Under the pieces are notes generated by a model. It had not been told where the DNA came from. It saw only the letters and a list, made by a program, of their open reading frames with translations, and did not search any database. DNA of 64,000 nt from an uncultured bacterium (lineage in GTDB: Bacteria > Patescibacteriota > Minisyncoccia > Moranbacterales > GWC2-37-73), in contig CAILTR010000050.1 of the NCBI GenBank assembly GCA_903837175.1, forward strand, positions 17,513 through 81,512, in the 5' to 3' direction. Shown piece after piece: positions 15,252 through 58,616 of the stretch (position 1 is its first letter; each line of letters starts with the position of its first letter). The translations under genes and the position numbers were made by a program.

Positions 15252-15275
15252 ATGTTTTATATCTCTAATCAACAC

Positions 15276-17499: not shown

Positions 17500-17639
17500 A
17501 TTCTAATTCATTATCCTAATTATATTTAAATGATATAAATCGCCAATCTTCACTAATCTTTTCACTAATAATCACTAATTTTGAAATTTTATTTGCGATT
17601 ATTCGAGATACTATTTGAGTTGATTCGTGATTTATAATG
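17500..17639. repeat. Family A element, copy 5 (divergent).
   Basis: ...cactaat...attcgagatactatttgagttgattcgtgat... Confidence 0.6.
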
Positions 17640-18544: not shown

Positions 18545-18651
18545 AATAGTATAAATCTCTAATTAATCACTAATCTATTTCACTAATTATCCCTAATGTT
18601 TTTTATTCGCGACTATTCGAGAAAAATTCGTGTCGATTCGCGATTTATTTT
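18545..18651. repeat. Family A element, copy 6.
   Basis: Same consensus. Confidence 0.85.
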
Positions 18652-18957: not shown

Positions 18958-19066
18958 AATGTTATAAATCTCTAATTAACGCTAATCTTATCTCTAATTA
19001 TCTCTAATATTTTTTACTATTCGCGAAAATTCGAGAAAAATTCGTGTCGATTCGCGATTGATATCC
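18958..19066. repeat. Family A element, copy 7.
   Basis: Same consensus. Confidence 0.85.
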
Positions 19067-19432
19067 TTACAGTACTTCTGGAGCCAATGAAACAATCTTG
19101 GCAAATCCTTTTTCTCGCAATTCTCTAGCGATTGGTCCAAAAATACGAGTTCCCTTCGGTTCTTTTTCATTAACAATCACAGCGGCATTTTCATCAAAGC
19201 GAATATAGGAACCATCTTTTCTGCGATAAGCTTTTCGTTGGCGAACAATCACAGCCCGAACCTTATCTCCCTTTTTTACTAAACCTCTTGGTTCAGCTGA
19301 TTTCACAGAGCAAACAATGATATCTCCAACCGAAGCATAACGTCTGCGAGTTCCACCAAGAACCTTGAAGCATTCAATTATTTTTGCTCCAGAATTATCC
19401 GCTGCTCTTAATCTTGTTTCTGCCTGAATCAT
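19067..19432 (-). CDS. rplN: Ribosomal protein L14.
   Basis: [18 protein letters not shown]-terminus. Confidence 0.95.
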
Positions 19433-19543
19433 ATGTTTAAATAAATCTCTAATTAACGCTAATCTTATCTCTAATTATCTCTAATATTTTTTACTATTCG
19501 CGATCATTCGAGAAAAATTCGTGTCGATTCGCGATTGATATCC
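19433..19543. repeat. Family A element, copy 8.
   Basis: Same consensus. Confidence 0.85.
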
Positions 19544-19783
19544 TTATATTACGATGTGATTTTTATCCTTACTCATTGGCCGACATTCAGTAAACTCTAC
19601 CACCTCTCCAACCTTGTGCTTATTTTCGGCGTCATGAACCTTATAGTTTTTGGTCGATCGATACTTCTTTAAATATTTCGGATGCGTCTTCAAGGATTGA
19701 ACAGCCACCACAATAGTCTTATCCATTGAGTCACTCACAACTTTACCTTTTTTTGTTGCTAATTTTTTAGTAGTGTTTGTCAT
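19544..19783 (-). CDS. rpsQ: Ribosomal protein S17.
   Basis: Conserved S17 OB-fold sequence. Confidence 0.93.
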   Translation of the reverse strand: MTNTTKKLATKKGKVVSDSMDKTIVVAVQSLKTHPKYLKKYRSTKNYKVHDAENKHKVGEVVEFTECRPMSKDKNHIVI

Positions 19784-19811
19784 ATCCTAGTTTTTATCCT
19801 AATTATATATT

Positions 19812-20000
19812 TTATTGCTCTTTCTCTTTTAGAATAGTCATCGCCCGCGCTACATCCTTTTTAAGCTCGCGGTACTCTCGATGATTCTTAAGCTGACGAG
19901 CTGCAATATCAAATCTAAGCTTAACTGCTTGAGATTGCTTCTCAGCGATTAATTTCTTAATCTGCTCAATATTTAAATCTCTAATTTCCAAAATTTTCAT
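19812..20000 (-). CDS. rpmC: Ribosomal protein L29.
   Basis: 62-aa helical protein in the conserved position between S17 and L16. Confidence 0.9.
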   Translation of the reverse strand: MKILEIRDLNIEQIKKLIAEKQSQAVKLRFDIAARQLKNHREYRELKKDVARAMTILKEKEQ

Positions 20001-20113
20001 AATGTTATAAATCGCTAATTAATCACTAATCTACTTCCCTAATTATCCCTAATGTTCTTTTCTTATTCGCGACCATTCGAGAAAAATTCGTGTCGATTCG
20101 CGATTACTATCCT
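20001..20113. repeat. Family A element, copy 9.
   Basis: Same consensus. Confidence 0.85.
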
Positions 20114-20527
20114 CTATTTTTCCTTAACTACAAATTTCGTCTTAACGCATAGTTTGTGAGAAGCCAATCTCATCGCCTCTTTAGCAACTGAGATATCTAT
20201 GCCATCCATCTCAAACAAAACTCTGCCTTCCTTGGTCTTGGCTACAAAATGATCAACACTACCCTTTCCTTTACCCATCGGAGTTTCATCACCCTTCTTA
20301 GTCATCGGTTTATCCGGGAAAATTCTAATCCAAATCTTTCCACCTCTCTTAATATACCTCGTCATCGCTCTTCGAGCAGCTTCGATCTGACGAGCTGAAA
20401 TTAATCCTGAGGTTGTTGCTTTAAGACCAAAGCTACCGAAACTTACAGTATTACCTTTGGTTGCAACTCCACGGATTGCTCCTCCGCGATGAATCTTCCT
20501 GTGTTTTACTTTTTTTGGCATCAACAT
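20114..20527 (-). CDS. rplP: Ribosomal protein L16.
   Basis: [11 protein letters not shown] start at 20527. The ORF extension to 20551 lies inside a degenerate Family A remnant. Confidence 0.93.
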
Positions 20528-20595
20528 ATATTTTGGTAAATCCCTAATCAACGCTAATTATTCCCTAATTTTCTCGAATCTTTTTTCATTGGTGA

Positions 20596-21273
20596 CTATT
20601 TAAGACTAGCTTCAGCTTGATTCGCATTTTTTTCTTCAAAGACTTCTCCCTTGTAAATCCAAGTCTTAATTCCAATTGCGCCATAGGTAGTGAACGCCGT
20701 AGCTTTAGCGAAATCTATGTCAGCCCGTAGCGTATGCAATGGAACCGTTCCTCTTGAAAGCCATTCTCTTCTAGCCATTTCAGCTCCGCCCAAACGACCG
20801 CAAATCTCAATCTTGACTCCCTTAACAATTCTATTTTTTTCAACTGTATCAAGGGTTGATTTCAAAATACGTCTAAATGGCACTCGCTTTTCTAACTGTT
20901 CAGCCACGCTTTGCGCAACTAGCGAAGCATTTTCCTCAAACTGACGGACTTCCTGAGCTTCTATTTTAAGGTCAACCTTCCTACCGGCGAAAAAGTTTTT
21001 CTTAATCACTACTCCCATATCAACGATACCAGTGCCACCCCTTCCAATCAGAACTCCCGGGCGCGATGTTTTCACGATCAATTTTAGAGTATTTGCGCTA
21101 CGCTCAATTTCAACCTCTGCAATTGCCGCTGCTTTATACTTTTTCATGATAAACTCCCTAATTTGGATATCCTCCTTGAGTTTTTTAGTATAATCCTTAT
21201 CTGAAAACCACCTTGATTTCCAAGTGTTGGTAATACCTATTCTAAGTCCAGTTGGGTTAACTTTATGTCCCAT
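20596..21273 (-). CDS. rpsC: Ribosomal protein S3.
   Basis: MGHKVNPTGLRIG N-terminus and a KH domain. Confidence 0.95.
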   Translation of the reverse strand: MGHKVNPTGLRIGITNTWKSRWFSDKDYTKKLKEDIQIREFIMKKYKAAAIAEVEIERSANTLKLIVKTSRPGVLIGRGGTGIVDMGVVIKKNFFAGRKVDLKIEAQEVRQFEENASLVAQSVAEQLEKRVPFRRILKSTLDTVEKNRIVKGVKIEICGRLGGAEMARREWLSRGTVPLHTLRADIDFAKATAFTTYGAIGIKTWIYKGEVFEEKNANQAEASLK

Positions 21274-21312
21274 AAATTCTAATTTAATATCCTAATTATA
21301 TGCTAATTAAAT

Positions 21313-21873
21313 TTAAACGCCTGATTTCCGCTGAAAAACTTTATTCAAAAAATTACCATCTTGTTGTTGTCCTTTTTTAGGAACTTCCTTTTTTACAGCA
21401 GTCTTTTTCGTCGCAGTCTTTTTTTCGCCCACAACTTCAGCGTCTTGCACCTCTTCTTCTTTAACGCTTTTCTTGATAGCCTTTTCTTTCACGGCTCGTT
21501 CCTTCTCTAACTGCTCTTTCGATTTACGATTTTTACCTTCGACTCGCTCTTCCAATTCCAAATCAATCTGGGAAGTTCTCTTGAGAATCAAAGTTGCTCT
21601 TCCTTGAGCCCTTGGCAACCATCTTTTTAAACTTGGTCCCCCGCCAACTTGAATATTATTTACAAACAAATTGTCCTTATCTAAACCAAAGTTATTTTCC
21701 GCATTTGCAATCGCGCTTCGCAGAAGCTTTTCCAAAGGATTACTTGTTTTCTTAACAAGGTTTTGCAATTGGATCAATGCCACAGAGCAGTTCATCCCAA
21801 CAATGCTGCGGGTAACTAATCTAACCTTTCGGGGAGACATTCTTAAATTTTTGAGTGTTGCTGTAACTTTCAT
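21313..21873 (-). CDS. rplV: Ribosomal protein L22 with a ~70-aa Lys/Glu-rich C-terminal extension.
   Basis: L22 core at the N-terminus, then a low-complexity KEKAIKKSVKEEE... tail. Confidence 0.92.
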   Translation of the reverse strand: MKVTATLKNLRMSPRKVRLVTRSIVGMNCSVALIQLQNLVKKTSNPLEKLLRSAIANAENNFGLDKDNLFVNNIQVGGGPSLKRWLPRAQGRATLILKRTSQIDLELEERVEGKNRKSKEQLEKERAVKEKAIKKSVKEEEVQDAEVVGEKKTATKKTAVKKEVPKKGQQQDGNFLNKVFQRKSGV

Positions 21874-22021
21874 GTATTTCTCTACGAATTACTAATTTGT
21901 ACGAATGTACGAATCATGATTCATTTGTATATGACATTAAATTCTAACTTTTATTAAATTTATAATCTCTTTTGCATTTCTTTCGTATATTCGTATCTGT
22001 TCGTAATTCGTAGAGATTTAC
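21874..22021. repeat. Family B-type element with terminal inverted repeats ctctacgaattac / gtaattcgtagag.
   Basis: TIRs lie at 21880-21892 and 22003-22015. Internal tacgaat repeats. Confidence 0.7.
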
Positions 22022-22369
22022 CTATTTTTTCTTCGCTCCTCCTGCTGGTTCAGCCTTGGCTGCTTTAGCGGCATCTTGCGCTTTTTGCTTAGCTGCTGAT
22101 TCTAATTCTTTCTGCATCTTCCCTCCATGTCGGGTGAACTTACGAGTTGGAGAAAATTCTCCAAGTCTATGCCCAACTGTTTCTTCAGTAATATAAACTG
22201 GGATAAATTCTTTTCCATTATGCACTCCGAAAGTAAAACCAATCATTTCTGGGGTAATCGTGCAAGCTCGAGACCAGGTCTTAATAGTTCCTTGCGCTGG
22301 GGTTGCATTTAAAACCTTCTTTACAACGCGCTCATCAATATATGGTCCTTTTTTTAAACTTCTTGACAT
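22022..22369 (-). CDS. rpsS: Ribosomal protein S19 with a Lys/Ala-rich C-terminal tail.
   Basis: [13 protein letters not shown]-terminus; tail ...[24 protein letters not shown]. Confidence 0.93.
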
Positions 22370-22482
22370 AATGTTATAAATCTCTAATCAATGCTAATTA
22401 TTTCACTAATTATCTCTAATATTTCTCAATGCTTATTCGCGAAAATTCGAGAAAAATTCGTATCGATTCGCGACTATTATCC
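22370..22482. repeat. Family A element, copy 11.
   Basis: Same consensus. Confidence 0.85.
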
Positions 22483-23313
22483 TTATTTCTTAACTCTTCG
22501 TTTAACGATAAACTTATCGCTGTATCTCTTTTTCTTTCTGGTCTTTTTTCCAAGCGCTGGCTTACCCCAAGGTGTTTTCGGATGTTTCAACCCAATTCCT
22601 TGTCTGCCTTCTCCTCCTCCATGTGGATGATCAACTGGATTCATAGCTGAACCTCGAACTTCCGGTCTTTTTCCTTTCCATCGATTTCTTCCAGCCTTAC
22701 CAATTTTTTCAGCGCTATGTTCGAAATTACTTACTTTCCCAATCGTTGCCCAGCAATCCTTACTAACCAATCTGATTTCATTAGAGGCCATTTTAAGCTG
22801 AGCCATTTTTCCATCGATAGCCATCAAAATTGCTCCTGAGCCAGCACTGCGAGCCATCTGTCCGCCCTTCCCAACCACTAACTCCACATTTGAAATAACT
22901 GTACCGGAAGGAATATTACGAAGAACAGTTCTATTTCCCTTTTTAATCGGTGCATTTTCTCCAGAAACAATTTCAACATCTTGTTTCATCCCTTCGGAGG
23001 CAAGCACATATCGCTTATCACCATCTTTATAAGATACCAAAGCAATCAAAGCACTTCTGTTTGGATCTCTTTCGATTGCAATAATTTTTCCAGGAATATC
23101 AAATTTCTGTTGTTTAAAATCAACTAAGCGATAGCGTCGTTTGTGTCCACCACCTTGATGCCTAGTAGAGATTTTTCCGTGACTGCGTCCGGCCTTTTGG
23201 GTCATTGGAGCAAGTAAAGATTTCTCCGGTTTTTTGTCGGTAAGATCGTCAGGCTTAACAATAGACATATTGCGCCTTCCCGCTGTATTTTTTTTGTATA
23301 CTTTAATTGCCAT
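22483..23313 (-). CDS. rplB: Ribosomal protein L2.
   Basis: Conserved L2 sequence, including the GGGHKRRYR region. Confidence 0.96.
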   Translation of the reverse strand: MAIKVYKKNTAGRRNMSIVKPDDLTDKKPEKSLLAPMTQKAGRSHGKISTRHQGGGHKRRYRLVDFKQQKFDIPGKIIAIERDPNRSALIALVSYKDGDKRYVLASEGMKQDVEIVSGENAPIKKGNRTVLRNIPSGTVISNVELVVGKGGQMARSAGSGAILMAIDGKMAQLKMASNEIRLVSKDCWATIGKVSNFEHSAEKIGKAGRNRWKGKRPEVRGSAMNPVDHPHGGGEGRQGIGLKHPKTPWGKPALGKKTRKKKRYSDKFIVKRRVKK

Positions 23314-23423
23314 AATAGTATAAATCTCTAATCAACACTAATTATTTCACTAATTATCACTAATATTCTTCTTATTCGCGATTATTCGAGTTTAAATTCG
23401 AGTCGATTCGCGATTTCTATCCG
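23314..23423. repeat. Family A element, copy 12.
   Basis: Same consensus. Confidence 0.85.
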
Positions 23424-23807
23424 CTAGGCTCCCTGGAATAGTTCAATTTTATCTCCCTCTTTCAGAGTAACGATTGCTTTTTTAATCGCTGACTTCGTAC
23501 CTTCAAATCTACCATATACTCTCTTTTTCGGGATAAAATTCATTACTGCAACCTTCTCAACTTTAACTTTATAAAAACCCTCGATTGCCTTTTTAACCTC
23601 AGCTTTCGTAGCCTGCCTGGTAATCCTAAAAACATATTTATTATCGGCAAGTCCCGCGTGTGATTTTTCCGTAATCCAAGGCTCCACTAAAATTTTATAA
23701 GCAATTTCAGCATTTTCAACAGCGATAGGCAAAACCTTTTTCGCTACTTTCTTAACTGCCACTTCTTTCTTTGAAGTCTTTTCTTTTTTTTCTTCAATTA
23801 CTGCCAT
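23424..23807 (-). CDS. rplW: Ribosomal protein L23 with a Lys-rich N-terminal extension.
   Basis: L23 core (YVFRI...KVKVEKV) preceded by roughly 30 extra residues. Confidence 0.9.
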   Translation of the reverse strand: MAVIEEKKEKTSKKEVAVKKVAKKVLPIAVENAEIAYKILVEPWITEKSHAGLADNKYVFRITRQATKAEVKKAIEGFYKVKVEKVAVMNFIPKKRVYGRFEGTKSAIKKAIVTLKEGDKIELFQGA

Positions 23808-23895
23808 ATATTTTTACCGATACGAAACTACGAATTATATACGAATCTACGAAACTTTTCGAATGGGCGCTTTCGTGGTGCGCTTTTCGCATGCT
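23808..23895. repeat. Family B element, copy 1: ccgatacgaaactacgaattatatacgaatctacgaaa...gggcgctttcgtggtgcgc.
   Basis: Nearly identical to the copy at 24526-24614. Confidence 0.85.
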
Positions 23896-25206: not shown

Positions 25207-25230
25207 TCGCCTGCCTGCCGGTAGGCAGGT
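25207..25230. repeat. GC-rich palindromic REP-like element cgcctgcctgccggtaggcaggta. A second hairpin ctggcttctcagccag lies at 25243-25258.
   Basis: Read directly from the sequence. Confidence 0.7.
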
Positions 25231-28773: not shown

Positions 28774-28888
28774 AAGTTTATTTTTATTAAAATATTATTA
28801 TTTAAAACTCTCATTTACTTCACAATTTTCCTGCCTACCAGCAAGCAAGCATTTAATCATTGAGATTTTATTGATCATTGATTATTGT

Positions 28889-29821: not shown

Positions 29822-30033
29822 AGAATATTTCTTATTATTGAATTAAAGAATTACAGAAATTTTGAATTTCTAATTTTGAATTTTGAATCAATTTTTAATT
29901 TTTCAATATTTCAAACATTCAATCATTAGAATTTGATTCGAAATTCAAAATTCAGAATTCGAAATTATTTGCAGTATTTGATTACTAGTTACTAACTACC
30001 GATTACTAGTTACTGATTACTAGTTACTAGTTA
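29822..30033. repeat. Low-complexity tandem repeat region: ttactagttac units plus aattttgaatt/aattcaaaatt inverted motifs.
   Basis: Read directly from the sequence. Confidence 0.8.
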
Positions 30034-32772
30034 CTAGTTACCGTTTACTTTTTTATTCCCTTCCGACTTTCGCGCTTCTTCAAAAATAAAGACCGCCAAC
30101 GTTGTCACCGCCACCGCCACCCAATCTTGCCAACCAATTGGTGACATGTGCAGATATTTACTAATAAATGGCACGTAAATAAAGCAAAGCAAGATTCCAA
30201 TTGAGACAACAATAGCACCCAAGGCATAAAGATTTTTAAAGAAACCAATCGCAAAAACTGAAAGTCGTTCACTTCGCGCTTGGAGCAAATTAGCCATCTG
30301 CGTCATCGAAAGCACGACGTAAGTCGCCGTAGTTGATCTCAGATATAGTACGCTTGTAGGGTCAATTTTATTGCCAAAATCCCAGCCGCCTCGCTTCATT
30401 GATAAAATAAAAGCGATAACACCGCCTACTGCCATTAGGAGTCCCACCCGAATAAGCCGAAAAATACCATCTTTGTCAATAACTTTTTCTTTTGATTTAA
30501 AAGGTTTTCGCTCCATCACATCCGGCTCTGATGGCTCTAAACTAAGCGAAAAAGAGGGGAAAATATCCGTCCCAAGGTCAATCGCTAAAATTTGAACGGC
30601 GGCAATCGGCGCTGGAATTCCAAGTAAAACCCCAATTGCCACCGTGAAAAATTCGCTGACATTTGAAGTAAAGACGTAATAAACAAATTTTCTTAAATTT
30701 TGATAAATCGTGCGACCTTCTTTAATTGCCTCGACTATCGAAGCAAAATTATCATTAAGCAAAATCATGTCTGAAGCATTCTTTGCCACATCCGTGCCAA
30801 TTTTACCCATCGCGATCCCAATATCAGCGCGCTTGAGGGCTGGCGCGTCATTAACTCCATCACCAGTCATCGCAATTACATAGCCACTTTTTTTCAGGGC
30901 CGTGGCAATTCGCAATTTTTGCTCAGGCGCAATGCGCGCAAAAATAACTTCTCTTTCTTTAATTTTTTCAATCAATTGCTTGTCAGACAAAGCATTCAGG
31001 GTCTTGCCATTAATCACTTCACTGTTTGAAGAAGTAAGCAAGCCCACATTTTTCGCAATAGCTTTGGCAGTTATCTCATAATCTCCCGTAATCATAATTA
31101 CTTTAATACTACTTTCGCCACATTGCGCAATGGCTTTGTGCACATCCAGCCTTGGCGGGTCTATCATCCCCATGGTGCCGACCCAAACTAAATCCCTTTC
31201 GGCCTCATTAGCATATTGTTCCTTAGGAACTTTTGATAGATCGCGTAGCGCAAAAGCCAGCACCCGCAAAGCTTGCGCTGACATGGCGTTAAAACTGCTT
31301 CGAGCTCTTTGTTTATCTTCCTGCGTGAATGGCAAAAGTTTTTCGCCAATTTGTTTTTGGGTACATAAATCAATCAACACATCTGGCGAACCTTTCACAA
31401 AAGAAGTCACGCTTGAATTTTCCTTATTCTGATAAATCACACTCATTCTCATTCTTTCTGAAGAAAAAGGGTTTTCATCAATTTTTTCTTGATCAGCATG
31501 AAAAAAAGCCAAATTCTTTTCAAACTTTTTCGCCACCACCAACAGCGCACCTTCTGTTGGGTCGCCTGAGATAGTGCACAGCTCCTCTTTTTCACTAACA
31601 TCAGCATCATTACAAAGAACGCCAATTTGTAGAAGTTTTTTTAATTGTATATTTAAAGTTGGCTCAATTTTCCGCCCGAAAGAAAAAAAGTTACCCTTAG
31701 CTGAATAGCCCTCCCCATCAACCGTCAGCTCCTCTTCGCCACACAAAATGTTTGTCACCATCAGCTCATTACGAGTAATCGTACCGGTTTTATCCGTACA
31801 AATGATATCCACTGAAGCTAGCGTCTCGACAGAATTTAATTTTTTAGCCAAGACGTTTTTCTTCAGCAACCGCTTCATCCCCAAGGAAAGCGCCACTGAA
31901 ATTGCCGCTGGCAGTCCCTCTGGCACGACGGAAACTGAAAGGGCCAAGGCAAACAAAAAGTTATCGTACAAAGAAGTCTTTGAATAAAAACCAGCAATTA
32001 AAACTAAGGCGCCAATTGTCAGCGCTGCGATGGTTACGTCTTTACCAAGAATCCGCATCTGTTTTTGCAAGGGCGTGTCTTCCTCTTTAACCTCAGCTAC
32101 TAAATTAGCGATATTTCCTAGTTGCGTTTGCATCCCGGTCTGCGTTACAACCGCCACCGCAGTTCCTCGCGTGAGCGAGGTACCCATAAAAACCATATTA
32201 TCAATATCTACCAAAGACAGTCCCTCTTGCGCAATTGGGCCTACCATTTTTCTCCCCGGGCGCGATTCACCGGTAAAAATAAATTCATTCGCATAAACAT
32301 CGTAGCCTTCGAGAAGGTAAGCGTCTCCAGCAACCGTATCGCCAGCTGCAATAAAAATAATATCGCCGACCGCTAAAAACTTAGCGTCAATTTCTTGGCG
32401 CTGCCCATCACGCAAAACTATTGCTTTGTCGCTGGCTAGCTGACGAATATTTTCCAAGGTTTTTTCCGCTTTATACTCTTGAAAAAATCCAATTAGGGCG
32501 TTAATCCCAACAATCAACAGAATAATTGTCGTATCGCGATATTCCCCAAAAAGAAACGCCAGGCCCCCCGCCACCAATAAAATCCAAACTAAGGCGTCAT
32601 TAAACTGGCCAATTAAAATCGAAAACCAACTCCAATTTTGTTTTTTTTCGACCTCATTAAATCCAGCCTGCTTGAGCCGCTCCTCGGCCTCTTGCGTTGT
32701 CAAACCCTTGATGGTCGAATTAGTTTTTTTAAAAACTTCCTCTTTCGTTAGGCTATATGTTTGTTTTTGCAT
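30034..32772 (-). CDS. P-type cation-transporting ATPase (P2-type, Ca2+/Mg2+-like).
   Basis: DKTGTIT phosphorylation motif, TGDGVNDAPAL hinge, TGES, and 8-10 TM helices. 912 aa. Confidence 0.9.
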   Translation of the reverse strand: MQKQTYSLTKEEVFKKTNSTIKGLTTQEAEERLKQAGFNEVEKKQNWSWFSILIGQFNDALVWILLVAGGLAFLFGEYRDTTIILLIVGINALIGFFQEYKAEKTLENIRQLASDKAIVLRDGQRQEIDAKFLAVGDIIFIAAGDTVAGDAYLLEGYDVYANEFIFTGESRPGRKMVGPIAQEGLSLVDIDNMVFMGTSLTRGTAVAVVTQTGMQTQLGNIANLVAEVKEEDTPLQKQMRILGKDVTIAALTIGALVLIAGFYSKTSLYDNFLFALALSVSVVPEGLPAAISVALSLGMKRLLKKNVLAKKLNSVETLASVDIICTDKTGTITRNELMVTNILCGEEELTVDGEGYSAKGNFFSFGRKIEPTLNIQLKKLLQIGVLCNDADVSEKEELCTISGDPTEGALLVVAKKFEKNLAFFHADQEKIDENPFSSERMRMSVIYQNKENSSVTSFVKGSPDVLIDLCTQKQIGEKLLPFTQEDKQRARSSFNAMSAQALRVLAFALRDLSKVPKEQYANEAERDLVWVGTMGMIDPPRLDVHKAIAQCGESSIKVIMITGDYEITAKAIAKNVGLLTSSNSEVINGKTLNALSDKQLIEKIKEREVIFARIAPEQKLRIATALKKSGYVIAMTGDGVNDAPALKRADIGIAMGKIGTDVAKNASDMILLNDNFASIVEAIKEGRTIYQNLRKFVYYVFTSNVSEFFTVAIGVLLGIPAPIAAVQILAIDLGTDIFPSFSLSLEPSEPDVMERKPFKSKEKVIDKDGIFRLIRVGLLMAVGGVIAFILSMKRGGWDFGNKIDPTSVLYLRSTTATYVVLSMTQMANLLQARSERLSVFAIGFFKNLYALGAIVVSIGILLCFIYVPFISKYLHMSPIGWQDWVAVAVTTLAVFIFEEARKSEGNKKVNGN

Positions 32773-36285: not shown

Positions 36286-37718
36286 TTTAACAATTTTTGA
36301 GCCACCCTCCAGACATCCCCCGCGCCCATCGTGATTAACACGTCAAATTCGCCATTGTGTTGCTTAAAATATGTAACCGCCTGCTCAATCGTTGGAATAT
36401 ATTCCGCTTTGCCAAATTGATATTTATTAATTAAATCAACTAATTCCTTTGAAGAAACTCCACCCTGCGCTTCGCGCGCGCTACCATAAATATCCAACAC
36501 AACCACCCTATCCGTATCATCAAAACTTTGGGCAAAATCTTGTAGTAAGGCCTTAGTACGAGTAAAAGTATGTGGATGAAAAACTGTCCAAACTTTTTTA
36601 TCGCCATAGCGAGCTCGGGCACCACTAAGTGTCGCTTTAATCTCATCCGGATGATGCGCATAATCGTCAATCAAGATCGCTTCTTTAAATTTTCCAACTT
36701 GTTCAAAACGTCTCGCAGCTCCTTTAAACTCGCGCAAAGCCATTTTAATTTTTTCTAAATCAAGCCCCATGCTATGGCAAATGGCAATCACTGCTGTACA
36801 ATTAAGCACATTATGCTTACCCGCCAGCGGTGTTTGAAAAACTCCCAAGCTTTTCTCTTTGCAAAAGATTTCAAAAAATTGTAAATTTGTCTGTTGCTTG
36901 TTGTCTATTGTATTTTGTATATTACTGTCTTTTGTATTTTGCTCCATGTTCCATGTTCCATGTTCTATGCCTACCCGATAGTCATTATCTTTTCCGAACC
37001 CATAACTCAAAACCTGACAAGTGGCCGATTTAGTTACTGCCAAAGTATCCACGCTATCACCCCAAACCACCAGAAATCCAACTTTAGGAATTTTAGCTAC
37101 AAAGTCCTTAAACACTTTTTTATAAGCGTCAAAATCAGGGAAAAAATCTGGATGATCCCAATCCACACTCGTTAAAATAGCCGACCACGGCTGATAAAAT
37201 TTTAATTTATTTTGATACTCATCCGATTCGGCTACGAAATAGTCTCCTTGGCCAGCAAGCGCGCTGCTATTCCAATCCAGGACGCAACTACCCACAATGG
37301 CCGATGGCTCAACCCCCGCTACCAATAAAGCTTGCGCCAAAATGGCTGAGGTTGTCGTTTTCCCGTGCGTCCCACAAACTGCAATCCCAAGTTTTTCAGC
37401 AAATAGCATTCCCAATAACTCTGGATAACTGATTAGTGGTAGCTTTTTTTCTTGGGCGGTTTTTAATTCAAGATTATTTTCTAGGCTGTACGCTGTCGAA
37501 AAAATTACCGCATCAAATTCATCTTTGATATGATCAGCCTCAAAAGTTTCAAAAAAAGCAATGCCAACTTTTTTTAAAATCGCATCCGTATAAAAAACTT
37601 CCTTCGTATCTGAGCCAGAAACTAAAATCCCGCGCGCATTCAGAATCTCCGCCACCGCCGTCATTCCCGCGCCCTTAATCCCAATTAAATATACTTTTTT
37701 GAAATCTTTAATATTCAT
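36279..37718 (-). CDS. murC: UDP-N-acetylmuramate--L-alanine ligase, carrying an in-frame microsatellite-derived insertion.
   Basis: GIKGAGMT and GTHGKTTT motifs. Insertion ...NMEQNTKDSNIQNTIDNKQQTN... is encoded by CATGGAA/TTGTCT repeats at 36889-36971. AGGTG Shine-Dalgarno sits 4 nt before the ATG. Confidence 0.88.
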   Translation of the reverse strand: MNIKDFKKVYLIGIKGAGMTAVAEILNARGILVSGSDTKEVFYTDAILKKVGIAFFETFEADHIKDEFDAVIFSTAYSLENNLELKTAQEKKLPLISYPELLGMLFAEKLGIAVCGTHGKTTTSAILAQALLVAGVEPSAIVGSCVLDWNSSALAGQGDYFVAESDEYQNKLKFYQPWSAILTSVDWDHPDFFPDFDAYKKVFKDFVAKIPKVGFLVVWGDSVDTLAVTKSATCQVLSYGFGKDNDYRVGIEHGTWNMEQNTKDSNIQNTIDNKQQTNLQFFEIFCKEKSLGVFQTPLAGKHNVLNCTAVIAICHSMGLDLEKIKMALREFKGAARRFEQVGKFKEAILIDDYAHHPDEIKATLSGARARYGDKKVWTVFHPHTFTRTKALLQDFAQSFDDTDRVVVLDIYGSAREAQGGVSSKELVDLINKYQFGKAEYIPTIEQAVTYFKQHNGEFDVLITMGAGDVWRVAQKLLNC

Positions 37719-39221: not shown

Positions 39222-40334
39222 CTATTTTTCCTCCAAATTAGTAAATTTTGAAATATTAAGCAAAATTCCAACGGCGGCCATTAGAAAAATAATAGAAGTT
39301 CCGCCATAGCTGATAAAAGGCAGCGGAATTCCCGTTAGCGGAACTAGGGCAATATTGGCCCCAATATTAATAAAAGCTTGTAAGGTTATCCACATCGTAA
39401 TGCCAGTAGCAATTAAGCGGCCGAAAGCATCTGGGGCATTCTTGGCAATCTTAAGACCTCGCAGGGCCAACATGATAAACAAAACGATTAAAAAGATGCC
39501 GCCAATCAGACCCAGCTCCTCGCCAATCACCGCAAAAATTGAATCGCCAACTGGCTCTGGTAAATAATTAAATTTTTGCCGACTATGTCCGAGCCCAAGC
39601 CCTAAAAAGCCGCCACTACCCACTGCCAGTAAGGCTTGATTAATCTGGTAGCCAATCCCACGCGGGTCAGCTCCGGGATCCAGGAAAGTAGAAAGTCTGT
39701 CAAAACGATACGGCTCCAATTTTATTAAAATCCAAAGAGCTAAAGTTCCTGCTAGCCCCATCGAAAAAAGATGCTTGAGCCTGGCCCCAGAAACAAAAAA
39801 CATCGCAAAAGAAGTCAGGATAATAACGCCTAGCGTGCCCATATCTGGCTGCTTGATAATTAAAAAACCAATCAAGCCCATGATACCCAAAAATGGTAGC
39901 AACCCTTCAAAAACATCTTTAATTTTCTGACTACCTTTACTCTCAAACCAAGCTGCTAGATAAATAATCACGGCTAACTTTGCCATTTCCGAAGGTTGAA
40001 AAGAAAATGGCCCAAGGTAAATCCAACGACTTGCCCCATAAACCTTTGAACCAACCCCTGGCACAAAGACTAAAACTAAACAGACTATGGCCGATAAAAA
40101 GAATAGCACCGCAAATTTTTTCCAAAAATGATAATCGACTTTCTGAAAAAGGTATAAAACAAAAAATCCAGGCAAAATTCCATAGAAAAGCTGATGTTTA
40201 AAAAAATAGTAACCCTCCCCAAAACGCGTCTGCGAATAAATTACCCCCGCGCTTGAAATCATCACCAAACCAAAAGCTAGCAGCGTCAGCACTGTAAAAA
40301 ATAAAGTCTTATCGAATTGTTTTTCGTTATGCAT
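39222..40334 (-). CDS. ftsW: SEDS family peptidoglycan polymerase FtsW/RodA.
   Basis: Ten TM helices and conserved SEDS motifs. Adjacent to murG. Confidence 0.85.
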   Translation of the reverse strand: MHNEKQFDKTLFFTVLTLLAFGLVMISSAGVIYSQTRFGEGYYFFKHQLFYGILPGFFVLYLFQKVDYHFWKKFAVLFFLSAIVCLVLVFVPGVGSKVYGASRWIYLGPFSFQPSEMAKLAVIIYLAAWFESKGSQKIKDVFEGLLPFLGIMGLIGFLIIKQPDMGTLGVIILTSFAMFFVSGARLKHLFSMGLAGTLALWILIKLEPYRFDRLSTFLDPGADPRGIGYQINQALLAVGSGGFLGLGLGHSRQKFNYLPEPVGDSIFAVIGEELGLIGGIFLIVLFIMLALRGLKIAKNAPDAFGRLIATGITMWITLQAFINIGANIALVPLTGIPLPFISYGGTSIIFLMAAVGILLNISKFTNLEEK

Positions 40335-40606
40335 AAACCGATACGAAACTACGAATTAAATACGAATCTACGAAAATTATGCTAATACAAACCTACAAAT
40401 CGAATCCAAATCTACGAAATTTTATTATCAAGCGAAGCGAGAGGAACAAAAGTATTCTTTCGATTCCGAGCTCTGCCTGACGGCTTGTCTACTGGGAGGC
40501 ATGCAAACAGGGAGCGACGATAACAAAAGTATCAATGCACCTTTTTTGATTTTTTTTCGTAGATTCGTACCCTCATTCGTAGTTTCGAATCGGTAAACTC
40601 AGATAA
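40335..40606. repeat. Composite element: an inverted pair of Family B arms (40335-40376 and 40556-40592) flanking about 180 nt of higher-GC unique sequence.
   Basis: Left arm ccgatacgaaactacgaat...; right arm ...attcgtagtttcgaatcgg is its reverse complement. Confidence 0.6.
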
Positions 40607-41293
40607 TTATTTTTTACCACCCGCATTATTCTCCCGCCACTTTTCAATCTCTTTATGATTACCACCAAGCAAAACTTCGGGAACTTTCCAACCATTAAAT
40701 TCTTCTGGCTTAGAGTATTGAGCGTGTTCCAAATAGCCCTCCTGACTATGGGATTCATAAACTGCGCTCTCTTCGTTGCCAAGCACCCCAGGCAGTAGTC
40801 GTGTCACACTGTCCACTACCAGCATCGCCGGAATTTCGCCACCAGTCAGCACGAAATCTCCGACAGAAATCTCTTCATCGACGATGTTTTGAGCAACTCG
40901 CTCATCAACTCCTTCATATCGCCCGCAAATCAAAATTAACTGATCATACTTTGCCAACCTCTCCGCATCTTTTTGGGTATATCTTTTACCCTTGGCCGAA
41001 AAAAGTATCGTTCGCATGGATGACTGATTGCCTGTCTGCCGACGAGGCAGGCTGATGACTGATGACTTTTTAATTGCATTTATGCAATTAAAAATTGGTT
41101 CAACCCGCATCACCATTCCAGCGCCTCCCCCATACGGCGTGTCGTCAATATTGCGATGCTTATTCTCAGTGTAATCTCTTAAATTATGAGCCTGAATTTC
41201 AATCGTCCCACTTTCTTTGGCGCGTTTAATAATCGACTCGCCGAAATAGCTGTCGAAAATCTCTGGAAAAATTGTCAGAATATCAAAACGCAT
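40607..41293 (-). CDS. trmD: tRNA (guanine37-N1)-methyltransferase, carrying an in-frame palindromic element insertion.
   Basis: SPOUT fold motifs. Insertion ...KSSVISLPRRQTGNQSS... is encoded by the element at 41018-41068. Confidence 0.88.
   Translation of the reverse strand: MRFDILTIFPEIFDSYFGESIIKRAKESGTIEIQAHNLRDYTENKHRNIDDTPYGGGAGMVMRVEPIFNCINAIKKSSVISLPRRQTGNQSSMRTILFSAKGKRYTQKDAERLAKYDQLILICGRYEGVDERVAQNIVDEEISVGDFVLTGGEIPAMLVVDSVTRLLPGVLGNEESAVYESHSQEGYLEHAQYSKPEEFNGWKVPEVLLGGNHKEIEKWRENNAGGKK
41018..41068. repeat. GC-rich palindromic element inside the trmD coding sequence.
   Basis: gatgactgattgcctgtctgccgacgaggcaggctgatgactgatgac. Its reverse complement matches the copy in folC. 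Confidence 0.8.
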
Positions 41294-41360
41294 AAAAATT
41301 AGTTATAAAATTTAAAGTAATAAAGTTGAAAGTTATAAAGTGGAAAGTGGAAACATTTCA

Positions 41361-41395
41361 GAGGCTAAGCCTCCCCTTAGAGGCTTAGCCTCTAG
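41361..41395. repeat. Hairpin repeat gaggctaagcctcccctt-agaggcttagcctc. Same family as 3946-3977.
   Basis: Sits in the divergent trmD/folC intergenic region. Confidence 0.7.
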
Positions 41396-41431
41396 AGTAC
41401 TACCCAACAATAGTAATTTTAACACAGTATC

Positions 41432-42892
41432 TTGAAAGAAAAAAGCACTACAGAATTTGCAAATTTTAGCCACCCTCGCTATGATTACCTAACTATGCAA
41501 ATCAAGACTATGCCACAATTTGAAGCCTACCTCAAAGCCCGCATTCCAACGCGAGAGGCTTTATTTGTGGGAGACTTAGGCTTGCAAAGAGCCAAATATT
41601 TTATGCGAGTATTGGGCAACCCGCAAAACAAAATTAAAGTAATCCACATCGCCGGCACTTCAGGCAAAGGCTCGACCGCTTATTTAACCAGCCACCTTTT
41701 GCAAAGCCAAGGTTTTCGGGTTGGACTTTCAATTTCCCCCCATATTTTTGACATTCGCGAACGTTTGCAAATTAATAACAAATTACCAAGTAAAAAATTA
41801 ATTTTAAAGTATTTCAATCAAATCCTGCCGACAATTTTAAAAATGGAAAAATGCCGCTATGGCATGCCAACCTATTTCGAAATTCTGGTCGGCCTAGCTT
41901 ACTATATTTTCGCCCAAGAAAAAATCGACTACGGCATTATAGAGACTGGCCTTGGAGGTCGGCTCGATGGAACCAATACAGTCACCAATAAAAATAAAAT
42001 CTGCATCCTCACAAAAATCGGACTTGACCACACTGAAATTCTCGGCAACACCCTAGCCAAAATTGCCAGTGAAAAAGCTGGCATCATTCAGAATCAAAAT
42101 GCAGTAATCAGCCATCAGCCTGCCTCGTCGGCAGACAGGTCATCAGTAACCATTAACCAGCTAATTGTTACTAAATGCCGAGAAAAGAGTGCAACTTTAT
42201 ATTTGATAAAACCTCGAAAAAATTATCAGCTAATCACTTCGACCCAAGCAGGAACTTTTTTTGATTTCACCTATGCCGTTGACGGCTCGGAGCTTAGCTC
42301 CGAAACTATACTCAATTTTAAAAACATTAAACTAAACTTGCTAGGTTTCCACCAAGTCGAAAACTGCTCCCTAGCTTTAACTTGTCTTTCACTTTTATCA
42401 AAGCGTGATAAATTCCCAATCAACGAAAAAAAAATGCGCATCGCCCTGCAAAAAATTTCCATCCCAGGCCGGATGGAAATTCGCAAAAACGGCAAAAACT
42501 TTCTCATTATTGACGGAGCGCATAATCCCCAGAAAATGACCACCTTCATTACTAGCCTAAAACTTATCTTTCCTGACCAAAAATTTGATTTTATTTTAGC
42601 CTTCAAAAAAGGCAAAGATTTTAAGCGGATCCTAAAAAAAATTCTCCCACTCGCCAACCACGTTTTTCTCACGAGCTTCTCAACCTCTAACCAAGATGAC
42701 CATTGGAGTTCTGTTAATAACGCTGAAATTGCAAACTATTTTAAAAAAGAAAAATTCAAAAACTTTTCCATTATTAAAAATAACGAAGCAGAGGTCCTTG
42801 CCGCTATTCAAAGCTCAAAGAAATCCATCGTCCTTACTGGCTCACTTTATCTGATTGGTTCAGTTTATGCTTATCTAAATAAAGCAAATTAA
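41432..42892 (+). CDS. folC: Folylpolyglutamate synthase / dihydrofolate synthase (Mur ligase family), carrying an in-frame palindromic element insertion.
   Basis: IAGTSGKGST P-loop and Mur ligase middle and C-terminal domains. Insertion ...SHQPASSADRSSVT... is encoded by 42110-42150. Confidence 0.8.
   Translation: MKEKSTTEFANFSHPRYDYLTMQIKTMPQFEAYLKARIPTREALFVGDLGLQRAKYFMRVLGNPQNKIKVIHIAGTSGKGSTAYLTSHLLQSQGFRVGLSISPHIFDIRERLQINNKLPSKKLILKYFNQILPTILKMEKCRYGMPTYFEILVGLAYYIFAQEKIDYGIIETGLGGRLDGTNTVTNKNKICILTKIGLDHTEILGNTLAKIASEKAGIIQNQNAVISHQPASSADRSSVTINQLIVTKCREKSATLYLIKPRKNYQLITSTQAGTFFDFTYAVDGSELSSETILNFKNIKLNLLGFHQVENCSLALTCLSLLSKRDKFPINEKKMRIALQKISIPGRMEIRKNGKNFLIIDGAHNPQKMTTFITSLKLIFPDQKFDFILAFKKGKDFKRILKKILPLANHVFLTSFSTSNQDDHWSSVNNAEIANYFKKEKFKNFSIIKNNEAEVLAAIQSSKKSIVLTGSLYLIGSVYAYLNKAN
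42110..42150. repeat. GC-rich palindromic element inside the folC coding sequence.
   Basis: cagccatcagcctgcctcgtcggcagacaggtcatcagtaac. Confidence 0.8.
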
Positions 42893-49031: not shown

Positions 49032-49058
49032 AAAATGATATAAATATCTAATCAACAC

Positions 49059-49146
49059 GAACTAGCTAGCTAATTTTCCCTAATCTCTAAAAAAATTATT
49101 CGCGATTATTCGAGCTAGAATTCGAGTGGATTTGTGAATTATATTA
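49059..49146. repeat. Family A element, copy 13 (outside the ribosomal operon).
   Basis: ctaatcaacac...attcgcgattattcgagctagaattcgagtggatttg. Confidence 0.75.
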
Positions 49147-54654: not shown

Positions 54655-54793
54655 GCATGGACCATGGAACATGGAACATGGAACAATGCCTTATTTTAAA
54701 ATATTTTATTTTTTATTTCACCCTATCAATCCATTTATTTTGCATTTTGCTTTTTCTGTTACATGTTATATGTTACATGATCCATGATTCTCA
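54655..54793. repeat. CATGGAA heptamer microsatellite plus an inverted tgttatatgttacatg unit.
   Basis: catggaccatggaacatggaacatggaaca ... acatgttatatgttacatgatccatg. Confidence 0.8.
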
Positions 54794-55891
54794 TTTTCCC
54801 ATCCCGAAAATTGCCATAATAACCCCGATCAAAGCGGTTACCATCGTAAAAATCCAGGCTCGCATGACAATCTTACATTCTGGCCAACCAAGCGCTTCAA
54901 AATGGTGATGCAAGGGCGCAGCCAAAAAAACTTTTCGGTGAAAAAACTTTTTACTGGAAAGTTGGATAATCACACTCCCCGATTCAAGCACATAGACCAA
55001 CACAATCAGGAAAAGTACCAGCGCTGAGTTTGTCAGCATCGCCACCACCCCCAAGGTTGTTCCAAGCGACACCGCCCCAGTATCACCCATCATAAAACGA
55101 GCCGGCGCAATATTAAACCAAAGAAAGGCCAAAATCACTCCAGCCATAGCGGCACAAAAAGAAGCCAAGTCAACTTTGTTTTGGAAAAAAGCAATGATCG
55201 CAAAAGAAAAAAAGGCCACCAATAAAACTCCGCCATTAAGCCCATCTAAACCATCAGTTTCATTAGAAGAAATTGCTGAAAACAAAATTACAAAAATAAA
55301 AAGCGGAATATACCATAACCCAATATTAAAATCGCCCACAGCTGGAACATGCAAAACGTCCCAACCCAGCTTATAATAAAACCACCAACCACCTGCCGCC
55401 GCAATTGCAATCAGCCAGCCAAAACGCATTGCAAATTTAATTCCGCCACCTTTATTTTTTCCCCAACCGCGCACGCTCAAAAAGTCATCAAAAAGCCCCA
55501 GGATACCCGCCGAGACAAGCGCAAAAAGCGGAAGCCAAACCTGCTTACGACTTAAAAAATCCAGTCGCGCAATCGAACTAACATTTAAACTTTCCGCAAG
55601 CCAGGGAAAAATAAAGTGCGAAGCAAAAACTAAAATTAAAATCGAAAACCACATAATCACCCCACCCATCGTTGGGGTTCCAGCTTTATGCGCATGCAAT
55701 TTATTGACAAAAGTCAGCTTCTCACCATTGACATCGCTACTTTTAATTTTAATCCCTATCTTATATTTATATAAAATATGCGTCCAAATTGGCGTGATTG
55801 CAAAAGCCAACGCAAAAGCGATAATGCCGGTCGACAAAACCTTTAAAACATTAAATACCTCTGGGATTGTTTGAATTTGAGCAAATTGCAT
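54791..55891 (-). CDS. mraY: Phospho-N-acetylmuramoyl-pentapeptide transferase.
   Basis: GTPTMGG motif and ten TM helices. The start MQFAQIQ at 55891 directly follows a Family A element. Confidence 0.88.
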   Translation of the reverse strand: MQFAQIQTIPEVFNVLKVLSTGIIAFALAFAITPIWTHILYKYKIGIKIKSSDVNGEKLTFVNKLHAHKAGTPTMGGVIMWFSILILVFASHFIFPWLAESLNVSSIARLDFLSRKQVWLPLFALVSAGILGLFDDFLSVRGWGKNKGGGIKFAMRFGWLIAIAAAGGWWFYYKLGWDVLHVPAVGDFNIGLWYIPLFIFVILFSAISSNETDGLDGLNGGVLLVAFFSFAIIAFFQNKVDLASFCAAMAGVILAFLWFNIAPARFMMGDTGAVSLGTTLGVVAMLTNSALVLFLIVLVYVLESGSVIIQLSSKKFFHRKVFLAAPLHHHFEALGWPECKIVMRAWIFTMVTALIGVIMAIFGMGK

Positions 55892-55918
55892 AAAATTATA
55901 TAAATCGCTAATCGACAC

Positions 55919-56002
55919 TAATTAATTCACTAAGCATCGCTAATACATTCGTGTGGATTCGGGATTTTGTTTTAAAAAAATTCGTGATTATTCGCGACTA
56001 AA
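55919..56002. repeat. Family A element, copy 14 (outside the ribosomal operon).
   Basis: ctaatcgacactaat...attcgtgtggattcggg...attcgtgattattcgcgac. Confidence 0.7.
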
Positions 56003-57645: not shown

Positions 57646-58365
57646 TTAGCTTTTAACTTTTTCGCTTTCTTTATGCCTCAACCTAATTTCCGAAAATAAT
57701 TCTCCTTGCTCAACGTGAATTAGCCGTTGCTTGACCATTTCCAACATCGCCAAAAAAGAAACTACTACCTCAACTTTATCTTTCGCATTAGCAACCAGTT
57801 CCGCAAACGAGGTTTGGACTTTCTGGCGCAAGGTTTCCTGCAGATGCACAATTCGCTCTTCTAAAGTTAAGACTTCTTTAATCATTTCTTCTTCTAACTT
57901 TTCCACTATTGGAATTTCTCCTAAAACTTTTGCAAAAGCCTTGCGTAAATCCTCACTGGCAAGGTTGGTTGGCGGATAAAAAAATACATGCTGACCTAAA
58001 AAACTTTCGCGCGAAACGCAAGCCGTTGCTGCTTGCAGAATAACCGCTAAATTTTTCGCAGCGTCTTTAAATTTTTTATACTGCGCTAGTTGCTGCTCTA
58101 AATCCTTAATCTCTTCTTCCTCTTCTGGCGAAAATTCCAGCAGTGGTAATAGCGCTTTTGATTTAATTAAAATCAGTCGCGCTGCCACGGATAAAAAATC
58201 CGCTAAATTCTGGAGCGTAATATTTTCCGCCTGACTAATATACTGTAAATATTGATCCGCAATCTGCGCGAGACTCACTCGCGTGATATCCAACTTTTCC
58301 TGCTCCGTCAGCTGGAGCAGTAAATCCAACGGCCCTTCGAATTGTTCAATTTTAATATTATACAT
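57646..58365 (-). CDS. scpA: Segregation and condensation protein A (kleisin).
   Basis: ScpA N- and C-terminal conserved regions. Confidence 0.85.
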   Translation of the reverse strand: MYNIKIEQFEGPLDLLLQLTEQEKLDITRVSLAQIADQYLQYISQAENITLQNLADFLSVAARLILIKSKALLPLLEFSPEEEEEIKDLEQQLAQYKKFKDAAKNLAVILQAATACVSRESFLGQHVFFYPPTNLASEDLRKAFAKVLGEIPIVEKLEEEMIKEVLTLEERIVHLQETLRQKVQTSFAELVANAKDKVEVVVSFLAMLEMVKQRLIHVEQGELFSEIRLRHKESEKVKS

Positions 58366-58391: not shown

Positions 58392-58616
58392 CCTTGCCTA
58401 CCGGCAGGCAGGCAAATCTACAAAATAAAAACTTGCATCCTGCATTCCCCTCCGCGCATTGCGCAGTGTGTAGGTAAAAGACGAACGATGAGCGTTAAAA
58501 AATTTTAAAACGCAGTGAGGTCAGCAGACCGAACGGAGTGGAAATTTTAGCGAAGAGCGAAGTCTTTGCCCCAGCAACAAGCACGTGCGGGATTTCCCTG
58601 CCTGCCGGTAGGCAAG
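58392..58616. repeat. Two inverted copies of a GC-rich palindromic element (58392-58418 and 58591-58616) flanking about 170 nt of unique, higher-GC non-coding sequence. MITE-like.
   Basis: cttgcctaccggcaggcagg at both ends in opposite orientation. No credible ORF between them. Confidence 0.6.

Follow-up and report, generated by a model that had tools for sequence, protein, structure and literature searches.

In a 64-kb window of contig CAILTR010000050.1 (the window being the whole stretch of DNA that was analysed, and the only part of the source genome covered), we could observe the same 21-nt palindromic segment inside two intact genes, trmD and a divergently oriented folC-like gene. We consider it probable that the two segments are copies of a non-autonomous, selfish repeat of the repetitive extragenic palindromic (REP) kind, and that they were added to pre-existing coding sequence. 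The 21-nt repeat unit is subsequently referred to as P in this text; its family comprises units of 20–22 nt with the consensus CCTGCCT-N6-7-AGRCAGG. Judged by its TrmD and FolC homologues, the source genome belongs to Candidatus Moranbacteria, in the Parcubacteria of the candidate phyla radiation (CPR). The G+C content of the window is ~38%.

One 21-nt repeat in two genes

A sequence-only reading of this DNA had described GC-rich palindromic elements at 41018-41068 in trmD and at 42110-42150 in folC, matching each other in reverse complement and inserted without damage to either gene. The repeat itself is real. An exact 27-nt core, CATCAGCCTGCCTCGTCGGCAGACAGG, occurs once per gene (41031-41057 on the minus strand and 42113-42139 on the plus strand), was matched 0 times in 100 shuffles, and is embedded in a 45-nt inverted repeat (41023-41067 / 42103-42147) with 91% identity. 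The proposed boundaries had to be redrawn, as the inserted unit is only 21 nt long (CCTGCCTCGTCGGCAGACAGG). The remainder of the 41–51 nt described is pre-existing flank, composed of tandem 7-mers of the type NNATCAG; the empty alleles of trmD presented below already have these flanks.

The core has the same orientation relative to both coding strands and is read in different frames, as had been proposed, giving LPRRQTG in TrmD and PASSADR in FolC. Because the identical 21-mer is translated in different frames in the two genes, the likeness of the inserts lies at the level of DNA and not of the peptide, as expected for a DNA element rather than a peptide motif. The unit is divisible by three and free of stop codons in all six frames. 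Both open reading frames (ORFs) are unbroken, with 228 aa for trmD and 465 aa, counted from the ATG at 41495, for the folC-like gene; there is no frameshift in either, and an alignment of homologues showed that the window protein retains the invariant TrmD residues.

Filled and empty alleles in relatives

TrmD proteins of relatives at 88–93% identity read KKSSVIS/NQSSMRT in the protein alignment, where the window and the homologue P0001 have KKSSVIS-LPRRQTG-NQSSMRT. The peptide PASSADR is found only in the window FolC (with a 100%-identical database copy, P0121) and in P0122; 30/30 other aligned homologues are without it. At the nucleotide level, the alignment of trmD displays a clean 21-nt gap for CCTGCCTCGTCGGCAGACAGG in L001 (a JGI contig with the same gene order), in L002 and in L004 (an ENA contig), with conserved flanks and no target site duplication (TSD). 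The filled allele has the arrangement GTCATCAG-P-CAATCAG, and the empty alleles read GTCATCA-GTAATCAG or GTCATCA-ACAATCAG. Both the 7-aa gaps in the TrmD and FolC alignments and the clean 21-nt indel in the DNA confirm that the inserts are lineage-specific, and the same peptides in unrelated bacteria, which the sequence-only reading had named as counter-evidence, were not found. These alignments show insertion of P as a clean 21-nt presence/absence without TSD.

Three states of the locus could be distinguished: both copies are present in the window, only the folC copy in L004, and neither in L001. In addition, the independent ENA contig L375 encodes P0001, and its trmD contains the identical 21-mer at the position used in the window. 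The folC copy appears to be the older one, since it is shared with L004, which is without the trmD copy; the trmD copy would be younger or more patchy. Between the window and L004, the folC genes are 88.5% identical (79.5% at third positions), and between the window and L375 the trmD genes are ~84% identical. In both comparisons, P is identical at 21/21 positions.

We also noticed that the type of the TrmD loop (KKSSVIS... versus KAKSQK...) is at odds with the neighbour-joining (NJ) tree of the remaining protein. This discord suggests that a short TrmD segment may have been exchanged between lineages.

Place of the inserts in the proteins

As the sequence-only reading had expected, both inserts map to loops; they are predicted to sit in low-confidence surface loops. 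In the AlphaFold model of TrmD, the insert lies in the coil 82-92 between the helix 64-81 and the strand 93-104, and the predicted local distance difference test (pLDDT) is <50 at residues 83-90. The same residues form an alignment gap against the solved structure of Staphylococcus aureus TrmD (3ky7). In the AF2 model of FolC, which has a mean pLDDT of 87.9, the insert falls into the loop between the strand 203-206 and the helix 215-230, where pLDDT is <50 at 211-213.

Family members in the window and in other Moranbacteria

The window contains 6 P copies and 1 degenerate copy in 64 kb, versus 0 expected. Two are genic and four clearly intergenic (five with the degenerate copy). Related intergenic copies had been proposed before and indeed exist (Table 1). 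They are 20–21-nt relatives of the CCTGCCTNCCGGNAGGCAGG type that differ from the genic 21-mer by more than 3 mismatches. The copy at 58392-58412 does not follow a gene; its spacer lies upstream of the ORF 57646-58365. Two apparent further candidates were discarded upon inspection: a third genic copy at 8019-8038 proved to be the native GT2 motif MPAYNEA, and the sequence ATTCCTG...CAGGAAT at 52994 looks native rather than inserted.

Between the two inverted copies at 58392-58616 lie 184 nt of higher G+C content, immediately upstream of the ORF 57646-58365. This segment has neither an Rfam match nor a sigma-70-like promoter match; the arrangement may represent a REPIN-like doublet or a segment that can be inverted.

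Other Moranbacteria carry further, independent members in the same two genes. L245 has the variant CCTGCCTGCCGGCAAGACAGG at exactly the trmD site of the window, the FolC of L246 (P0150) has the variant CCTGCCTGCCGGACAGGCAGG one heptamer upstream of the folC site of the window, the TrmD of L247 contains CCTTGCCTACCGGCAGGCAGG between TTTCCAA words, and L376 has a further independent variant at a nearby site in the same TrmD/FolC loops. Decayed copies (PASVADG, PASPADG) are found in the same TrmD loop of other clades. All genic copies in Moranbacteria TrmD and FolC are 21 nt long. The same TrmD loop has been struck at least 5 times in Moranbacteria, and the older copies have decayed into ordinary loop sequence.

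Table 1. Coordinates of the two genes, of the repeat copies and of the flanking words in the window
Feature	Position	Strand	Remarks
trmD, tRNA (m1G37) methyltransferase, 228 aa, intact	40607-41293	-	PF01746 on homologues; PDB TrmD matches to E = 1e-62
folC-like Mur-ligase family gene (dihydrofolate / folylpolyglutamate synthase), intact	41495-42892	+	homologues with PF08245, PF02875, PF27239
P insert in trmD, coding-strand CCTGCCTCGTCGGCAGACAGG	41031-41051	-	adds L82-G88 = LPRRQTG; exact match
P insert in folC-like gene, CCTGCCTCGTCGGCAGACAGG	42119-42139	+	phase 0, P209-R215 = PASSADR; exact match
5' flank of trmD insert (coding strand), tandem heptamer words AGTCATCAGTCATCAG	41052-41067	-	same in empty alleles L001, L002, L004; target, not insert
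3' flank of trmD insert (coding strand), heptamer words CAATCAGTCATCC	41018-41030	-	present in empty alleles; target, not insert
5' flank of folC insert, heptamer words AGTAATCAGCCATCAG	42103-42118	+	
3' flank of folC insert, heptamer words TCATCAGTAACCATTAACCAG	42140-42160	+	
Intergenic 20-nt member CCTGCCTACAGGTAGGCAGG	10770-10789	.	apex of longer inverted repeat CCAGGG...CCCTGG
Intergenic 20-nt member CCTGCCTGCCGGTAGGCAGG	25210-25229	.	
Intergenic 21-nt member CCTTGCCTACCGGCAGGCAGG	58392-58412	.	same 21-mer in frame in L247 TrmD
Intergenic 20-nt member CCTGCCTGCCGGTAGGCAAG	58597-58616	.	inverted relative to the copy at 58392
Degenerate intergenic copy CCTGCCTACCAGCAAGCAAG	28830-28849	.	
Second, unrelated palindrome TCGGAGCTTAGCTCCGA in folC-like gene	42287-42303	+	GSELSSE, residues 264-270; hairpin scan
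Dimer of second palindrome (AGAGGCTAAGCCTC CCCTT AGAGGCTTAGCCTCT)	41360-41394	.	trmD-folC divergent spacer

Occurrence in other phyla and in phages

The family is not restricted to Moranbacteria. Copy numbers and taxonomic proportions from the scans of sequence collections are lower bounds from uneven sampling, and exact-match searches favour undiverged copies. The pattern CCTGCCTN{2,3}CGGN{1,2}AGRCAGG gave at least 120 matches in contigs from one genome per species. The hosts among the matches listed are Bacteroidota (cultured isolates included), several CPR groups, Omnitrophota, Planctomycetota, Chloroflexota, Nitrospirota and proteobacteria. Two forms dominate the family, the perfect palindrome CCTGCCTGCCGGCAGGCAGG and CCTGCCTGTCGGCAGACAGG. 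The exact 21-mer of the window was found at no fewer than 112 distinct sites in metagenome contigs. The 20-mer folds into an 8-bp stem (-8.0 kcal/mol), and with units of 20–22 nt the family falls into the range of small (20–40 bp) palindromes that defines REPs.

In viruses, the family is specific but sparse. The exact 20-mer is present in 35 IMG/VR stretches, compared with 0 and 1 for two arm-shuffled control palindromes; with so few stretches, the idea that the repeat is abundant in phages had to be given up. A few phage contigs have many P copies, some of them nested. For example, L165 (IMGVR_UViG_3300038551_000082) harbors at least 12 copies in 28.8 kb. Its muramidase-like phage protein (2955-3974, minus strand) has 4–5 P copies in the N-terminal linker, two of them nested, which encode LPVGRQG, LPTGQAGRTGRQ and LPTGQAG (twice).

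Another recurrent host is a group of Bacteroidota-type histidine kinases (L315, L319, L350, L304 and ~20 further metagenome loci), in which the exact 21-mer is found at one site. It lies on the opposite strand and is read as LSADEAG, in the context ...TDFDxS-LSADEAG-IGKINIIP in the HATPase_c region, with diverged flanks. The L315 kinase has an additional copy, LPAGQAG, near its C-terminus. We also found P in truncated duplicates of tRNA 5' halves (L107, 3617-3682; L052, 4021-4080) that lie directly upstream of intact tRNA-Val and tRNA-Met genes. As these copies are in the truncated duplicates, insertion into functional tRNAs was rejected.

Length and reading frame of the genic copies

We next examined how copies of the repeat are distributed over coding sequence; in foreign loci, ORFs were called by a stop-to-stop heuristic. 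At loci with a G+C content <50%, 21-nt variants make up 16/24 of the copies inside long ORFs versus 30/128 of those outside (odds ratio 6.5, p = 6e-5). For the exact 21-mer, 20 independent sites in ORFs were compared: the frame was PASSADR at 13, LSADEAG at 5, and LPRRQTG and CLPTRQA at 1 each; the remaining two frames were seen at 0 of 20 sites (frame skew p = 3e-7). Since such a filtering by length and by frame is expected only under translation and peptide selection, the P copies in genes appear to be translated and selected as peptide. Removal at the RNA level, as by a mini-intron, was considered and rejected in view of both biases.

Insertion sites and search for a mobiliser

Two filled/empty pairs within single genomes, in L322 (GCCGATAAA-P-TCGGC) and in L354 (AGATTCCTG-P-CTTTCGCAGGAATGAC), differ by exactly 21 nt and show no duplication. 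In both, P is located at the stem/loop border of a host hairpin, which in L354 is itself a CGTC-type REP. Copies nested in other P copies are likewise found at the stem/loop border. Over the whole set, a host hairpin (stem of at least 7 bp) spans the junction at 3.8% of 417 sites, compared with 0.8% of control positions (p = 2e-5). Direct repeats of 7 nt (X-P-X) flank 15/282 copies, where 0.6 are expected; the excess is seen for k = 7 only. These heptamers must be regarded as target and not as TSD, because the empty alleles already hold both of them and because a 7-bp TSD would add 28 nt and break the frame; all genic X-P-X copies are 21 nt long.

The flank profile of 64 independent sites holds information only at -1 (a purine, R) and at +1 (Y, mostly C). 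There is no conserved tetranucleotide 5' of P in this profile, so that a conserved insertion target in the style of IS200/IS605 was rejected. A linked gene did not emerge either: when 1744 neighbouring ORFs were clustered over 360 loci, nothing recurred except the histidine kinases that host P and phage structural clusters. A tblastn search with four sequences of REP-associated tyrosine transposases (RAYTs) against the window and L001-L004 gave nothing significant, the best match having E = 0.06 over 19 aa.

P leaves no TSD, prefers hairpin loops to a moderate degree and has no conserved target, all of which points to a route that depends on single-stranded DNA or on a hairpin. P may thus spread by copy-and-paste of its hairpin through a single-stranded or hairpin-dependent step. 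This step would be carried out either in trans, by an enzyme of the host or of a phage whose gene does not adjoin P, or by template switching during replication. Local recombination between similar flanks probably assists. A 21-nt unit without stop codons would automatically remain in frame, so that a copy in a surface loop would simply be read as seven extra residues, and selection would then purge the copies that landed in bad places or bad frames. The 21-nt sub-lineage would be tolerated because its length is a multiple of three and none of its six frames contains a stop. For TrmD and FolC, the elements would be without function.

A broader picture can be drawn only tentatively, and we would not yet bet on it. 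P may be a pan-bacterial, phage-carried, tag-less replicator of 20–22 nt that a shared host or phage activity, or template switching, copies without TSD into single-stranded hairpin loops and repeat junctions; its 21-nt lineages would recurrently seed new protein loops, and in CPR bacteria it would be linked to the arrays of heptamer words in spacers and some loops. If this were true, P would be the smallest mobile DNA described.

Most spacers of the window consist of short tandem words of ~7–10 nt that differ from spacer to spacer, such as CATGGAA (four times), TACGAAn, GATTACTAGTTAC and AAATTGTT. Examples of such arrays are located at 13386-13416, 23808-23858, 29979-30048, 36937-36969, 40329-40423 and 54656-54686. 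The orthologous spacers of L001 use other words. When the intergenic P sites of the window were compared with L001 in search of more filled/empty pairs, the spacers proved unalignable. The TrmD and FolC loops that host P are built of heptamer arrays similar to the spacer words.

Weighing the explanations

Several observations weigh against the view that P is a selfish repeat added to coding sequence. Its 21/21 identity in genes that are 84–88% identical has a probability of ~3–8% each under neutrality and could mean constraint rather than junk. The NJ tree of TrmD does not make the filled alleles (window and P0001) sisters; their history therefore includes recombination, repeated insertion or precise loss. 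Taken together, the identity and the ungrouped filled alleles suggest homogenisation, recurrent insertion or some constraint. The stem of the 21-mer in the window is only 5 bp long (-4.6 kcal/mol), and hairpin-loop and heptamer targets each explain only ~5–7% of the sites. Finally, the analysis found neither a mobilising enzyme nor an intermediate, and mobility is inferred from comparative presence/absence only.

A serious alternative for the trmD copy is that it derives from the folC copy by short-patch ectopic gene conversion or template switching between the inverted (NNATCAG)n arrays, with P in general owing most of its spread to recombination between repeated flanks. Only the route by which P spreads is at issue here, and the repeat could still be selfish; we regard this alternative as possible, if rather doubtful. 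The two copies are identical, inverted and 1 kb apart, with flanks that are 91% alike over 45 nt, and the presumed direction agrees with the sharing of the folC copy, but not of the trmD copy, by L004. Copies in L127, L108, L161 and L322 often have flanks in common within a genome, and the departure of the TrmD loop type from the TrmD tree also suggests an exchange of segments. However, the bases directly 3' of P differ (CA versus TC) and the trmD flanks are the same as in the empty alleles, so any conversion tract must have been almost exactly P. L375 carries the trmD copy as well, although the comparison with this contig covers trmD only. Moreover, the same 21-mer is found in metagenomes in at least 64 unrelated flank contexts, unique coding sequence included, for which recombination alone is insufficient. 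We find it distinctly unlikely that P is functional and kept by selection, be it as an RNA hairpin (mRNA stability, translational pausing) or as a recombinase or regulator site with 7+6 or 7+7 inverted arms, in which case copies in genes would be adaptive or at least constrained. Such a role would fit the complete identity of P in the diverged folC (window/L004) and trmD (window/L375) genes, the exact sequences common to several phyla, the LSADEAG copy conserved at one histidine-kinase site in at least 25 contigs and the two inverted copies that bracket 184 nt upstream of an ORF. On the other hand, the genes that contain copies are many and unrelated, several frames and both orientations are used, and copies also lie inside each other and inside other repeats; close relatives thrive without P, and copies have decayed in the same TrmD loop. 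The hairpin is weak and matches no Rfam family, and the exact-match searches are skewed to identical copies.

That the seven residues are ancestral and were precisely deleted in the relatives seems very improbable. The filled TrmD alleles are indeed not monophyletic in the NJ tree, and the CAG/CAGG microhomology at the borders of P could in principle allow a deletion by slippage, but the same 21-mer recurs in two genes that are unrelated and read it in different frames, as well as at >100 unrelated sites elsewhere, and no distant homologue or solved structure contains the segment. Chance similarity, convergent peptide coding or an assembly artefact, which only the shortness of P could favour, is effectively refuted: the shuffles gave 0 matches, the different reading frames rule out convergence, the same inserts are present in independent ENA, JGI and Logan assemblies (P0001/L375, P0121, L004), and family members are found in genomes of cultured isolates.

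Relation to known palindromic repeats

Among known repeats, we place P with the REPs, as a tag-less variant; it is neither a Rickettsia palindromic element (RPE) nor a miniature inverted-repeat transposable element (MITE) nor a derivative of IS200/IS605. The nearest precedent comes from Rickettsia conorii, whose genes contain single CGTC-type REPs (PMC3733652). Di Nocera et al. (2013) described single GTAG- and CGTC-tagged REPs in frame within genes of several phyla; the CGTC-tagged set comprises CGTC-1 to CGTC-4 and includes the Neisseria dRS3 and the R. conorii RPE-6 and RPE-4 (PMC3733652). R. conorii genes with single CGTC REPs (RPE-4/RPE-6) encode peptides of 8–9 aa, such as VIPAKAGI and SFPRKRES, and CGTC REPs, for which no dedicated transposase was found, were proposed to sit in linkers or loops (PMC3733652). 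REPs of other, mostly GTAG families were found inside other palindromes (PMC3733652).

Like P, CGTC REPs are small dispersed palindromes with similar sequence over several phyla that can be found as single in-frame units, and the loop of 4–5 nt is similar in both. Some FolC homologues of Moranbacteria even contain the CGTC-1 peptide, VIPAKAGIQ. However, P lacks both the terminal CGTC/TGTC tag and the CCA tail (the only CGTC in the 21-mer is in its loop). The stem of P is GC-rich (CCTGCCTG / CAGGCAGG), whereas that of the CGTC REPs has 8–9 bp and starts with A-T pairs, and with 20–22 nt P is shorter than the REP families described. The hosts differ as well, with CPR/Patescibacteria, Bacteroidota and phage contigs for P and mainly alpha-proteobacteria for the CGTC REPs. 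The GTAG REPs and REPINs, which are mobilised by RAYTs (Y1 HUH), share with P that they are short dispersed imperfect palindromes (20–40 bp), often in inverted pairs and without TSD. P lacks the GTAG tag, though, and we found no RAYT in the window or beside the copies; REP families are also usually species-specific, while P is common to several phyla.

The sequence-only reading had likened the inserts to RPEs. These are ~150 bp long, fall into ten families restricted to Rickettsia and encode a conserved peptide of ~30–50 aa (Ogata et al. 2000, as summarised in PMC10969869). The comparison holds for the behaviour, since elements of the RPE-1 type are also selfish palindromes that sit in frame in housekeeping genes where the fold accepts extra residues. 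It fails for the identity, as P has 21 nt (7 aa), an unrelated sequence and hosts in other phyla, many in number. MITEs are likewise non-autonomous and occasionally found in frame in genes, but they are typically <500 bp (most of them tens to a few hundred), with terminal inverted repeats, a TSD and an AT-rich body, whereas P is GC-rich, has 20–22 nt and leaves no TSD. Unlike the IS200/IS605-derived PATE, P has one hairpin only and no conserved 5' target of 4–5 nt.

A parallel from outside the bacteria is provided by the GC clusters of yeast mitochondria, which are GC-rich hairpins in an AT-rich genome, found in frame in var1 with presence/absence alleles. They differ from P in being organellar, ~30–50 nt long, in some cases with a short TSD, and unrelated in sequence.

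The P family, its sequences and the encoded peptides find no mention in the searchable literature and are absent from the text and supplements of PMC3733652. What is new is therefore the untagged and unusually small family, intragenic in-frame REPs being a kind already known.

Other repeats in the window and in FolC homologues

The folC-like gene contains a second, unrelated palindrome (42287-42303; Table 1) with a DNA fold of -6.7 kcal/mol (z = -4.4). The GSELSSE stretch that it encodes is the only other FolC segment with pLDDT <50. The palindrome belongs to a second family, GGAG(G)CTNAG(C)CTCC, with intergenic members at 3757-3771, 3939-3972 (a dimer), 4169-4183 and 41360-41394. FolC homologues of Moranbacteria contain further palindrome-derived inserts, VIPAKAGIQ in P0143, P0157 and P0165 and HPELVSGS in P0141, P0161 and P0164, as well as further GC-rich inserts in P0154, P0157 and P0162.

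We also noticed a conserved upstream module of 71–143 nt (D1-D4; 15224-23431, 49034-49143 and 55874-55964) that is found 9–11 times before small ORFs of 115–180 aa. It is made up of CTAAT words followed by ATTCGCGA...TTCGTGTCGATTCGCGA and looks like a common promoter/operator of a paralogous gene cluster. The spacer upstream of the P-type ATPase gene contains, next to the GATTACTAGTTAC word array, a 71-nt imperfect palindrome (29841-29983) with arms that are 73% complementary and separated by 1 nt. The minus strand holds 64/65 long ORFs, the folC-like gene being the sole gene on the plus strand, and the GC skew is negative across the whole window. A search of the window for Rfam families and tRNAs found none.

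Implications

These results extend selfish DNA in coding genes from Rickettsia and a few proteobacteria to CPR bacteria, Bacteroidota and phage contigs. The repeat is short enough for gene callers and repeat finders to ignore, and its inserts can be a source of error when CPR proteins are aligned, placed in phylogenies or subjected to structure prediction. At the same time, P provides a concrete source, and one that can be dated, of loop insertions of seven residues in conserved enzymes. Identical 20–21-mers across unrelated phyla without a linked transposase sharpen the question already raised by the CGTC REPs, namely what mobilises such hairpins.

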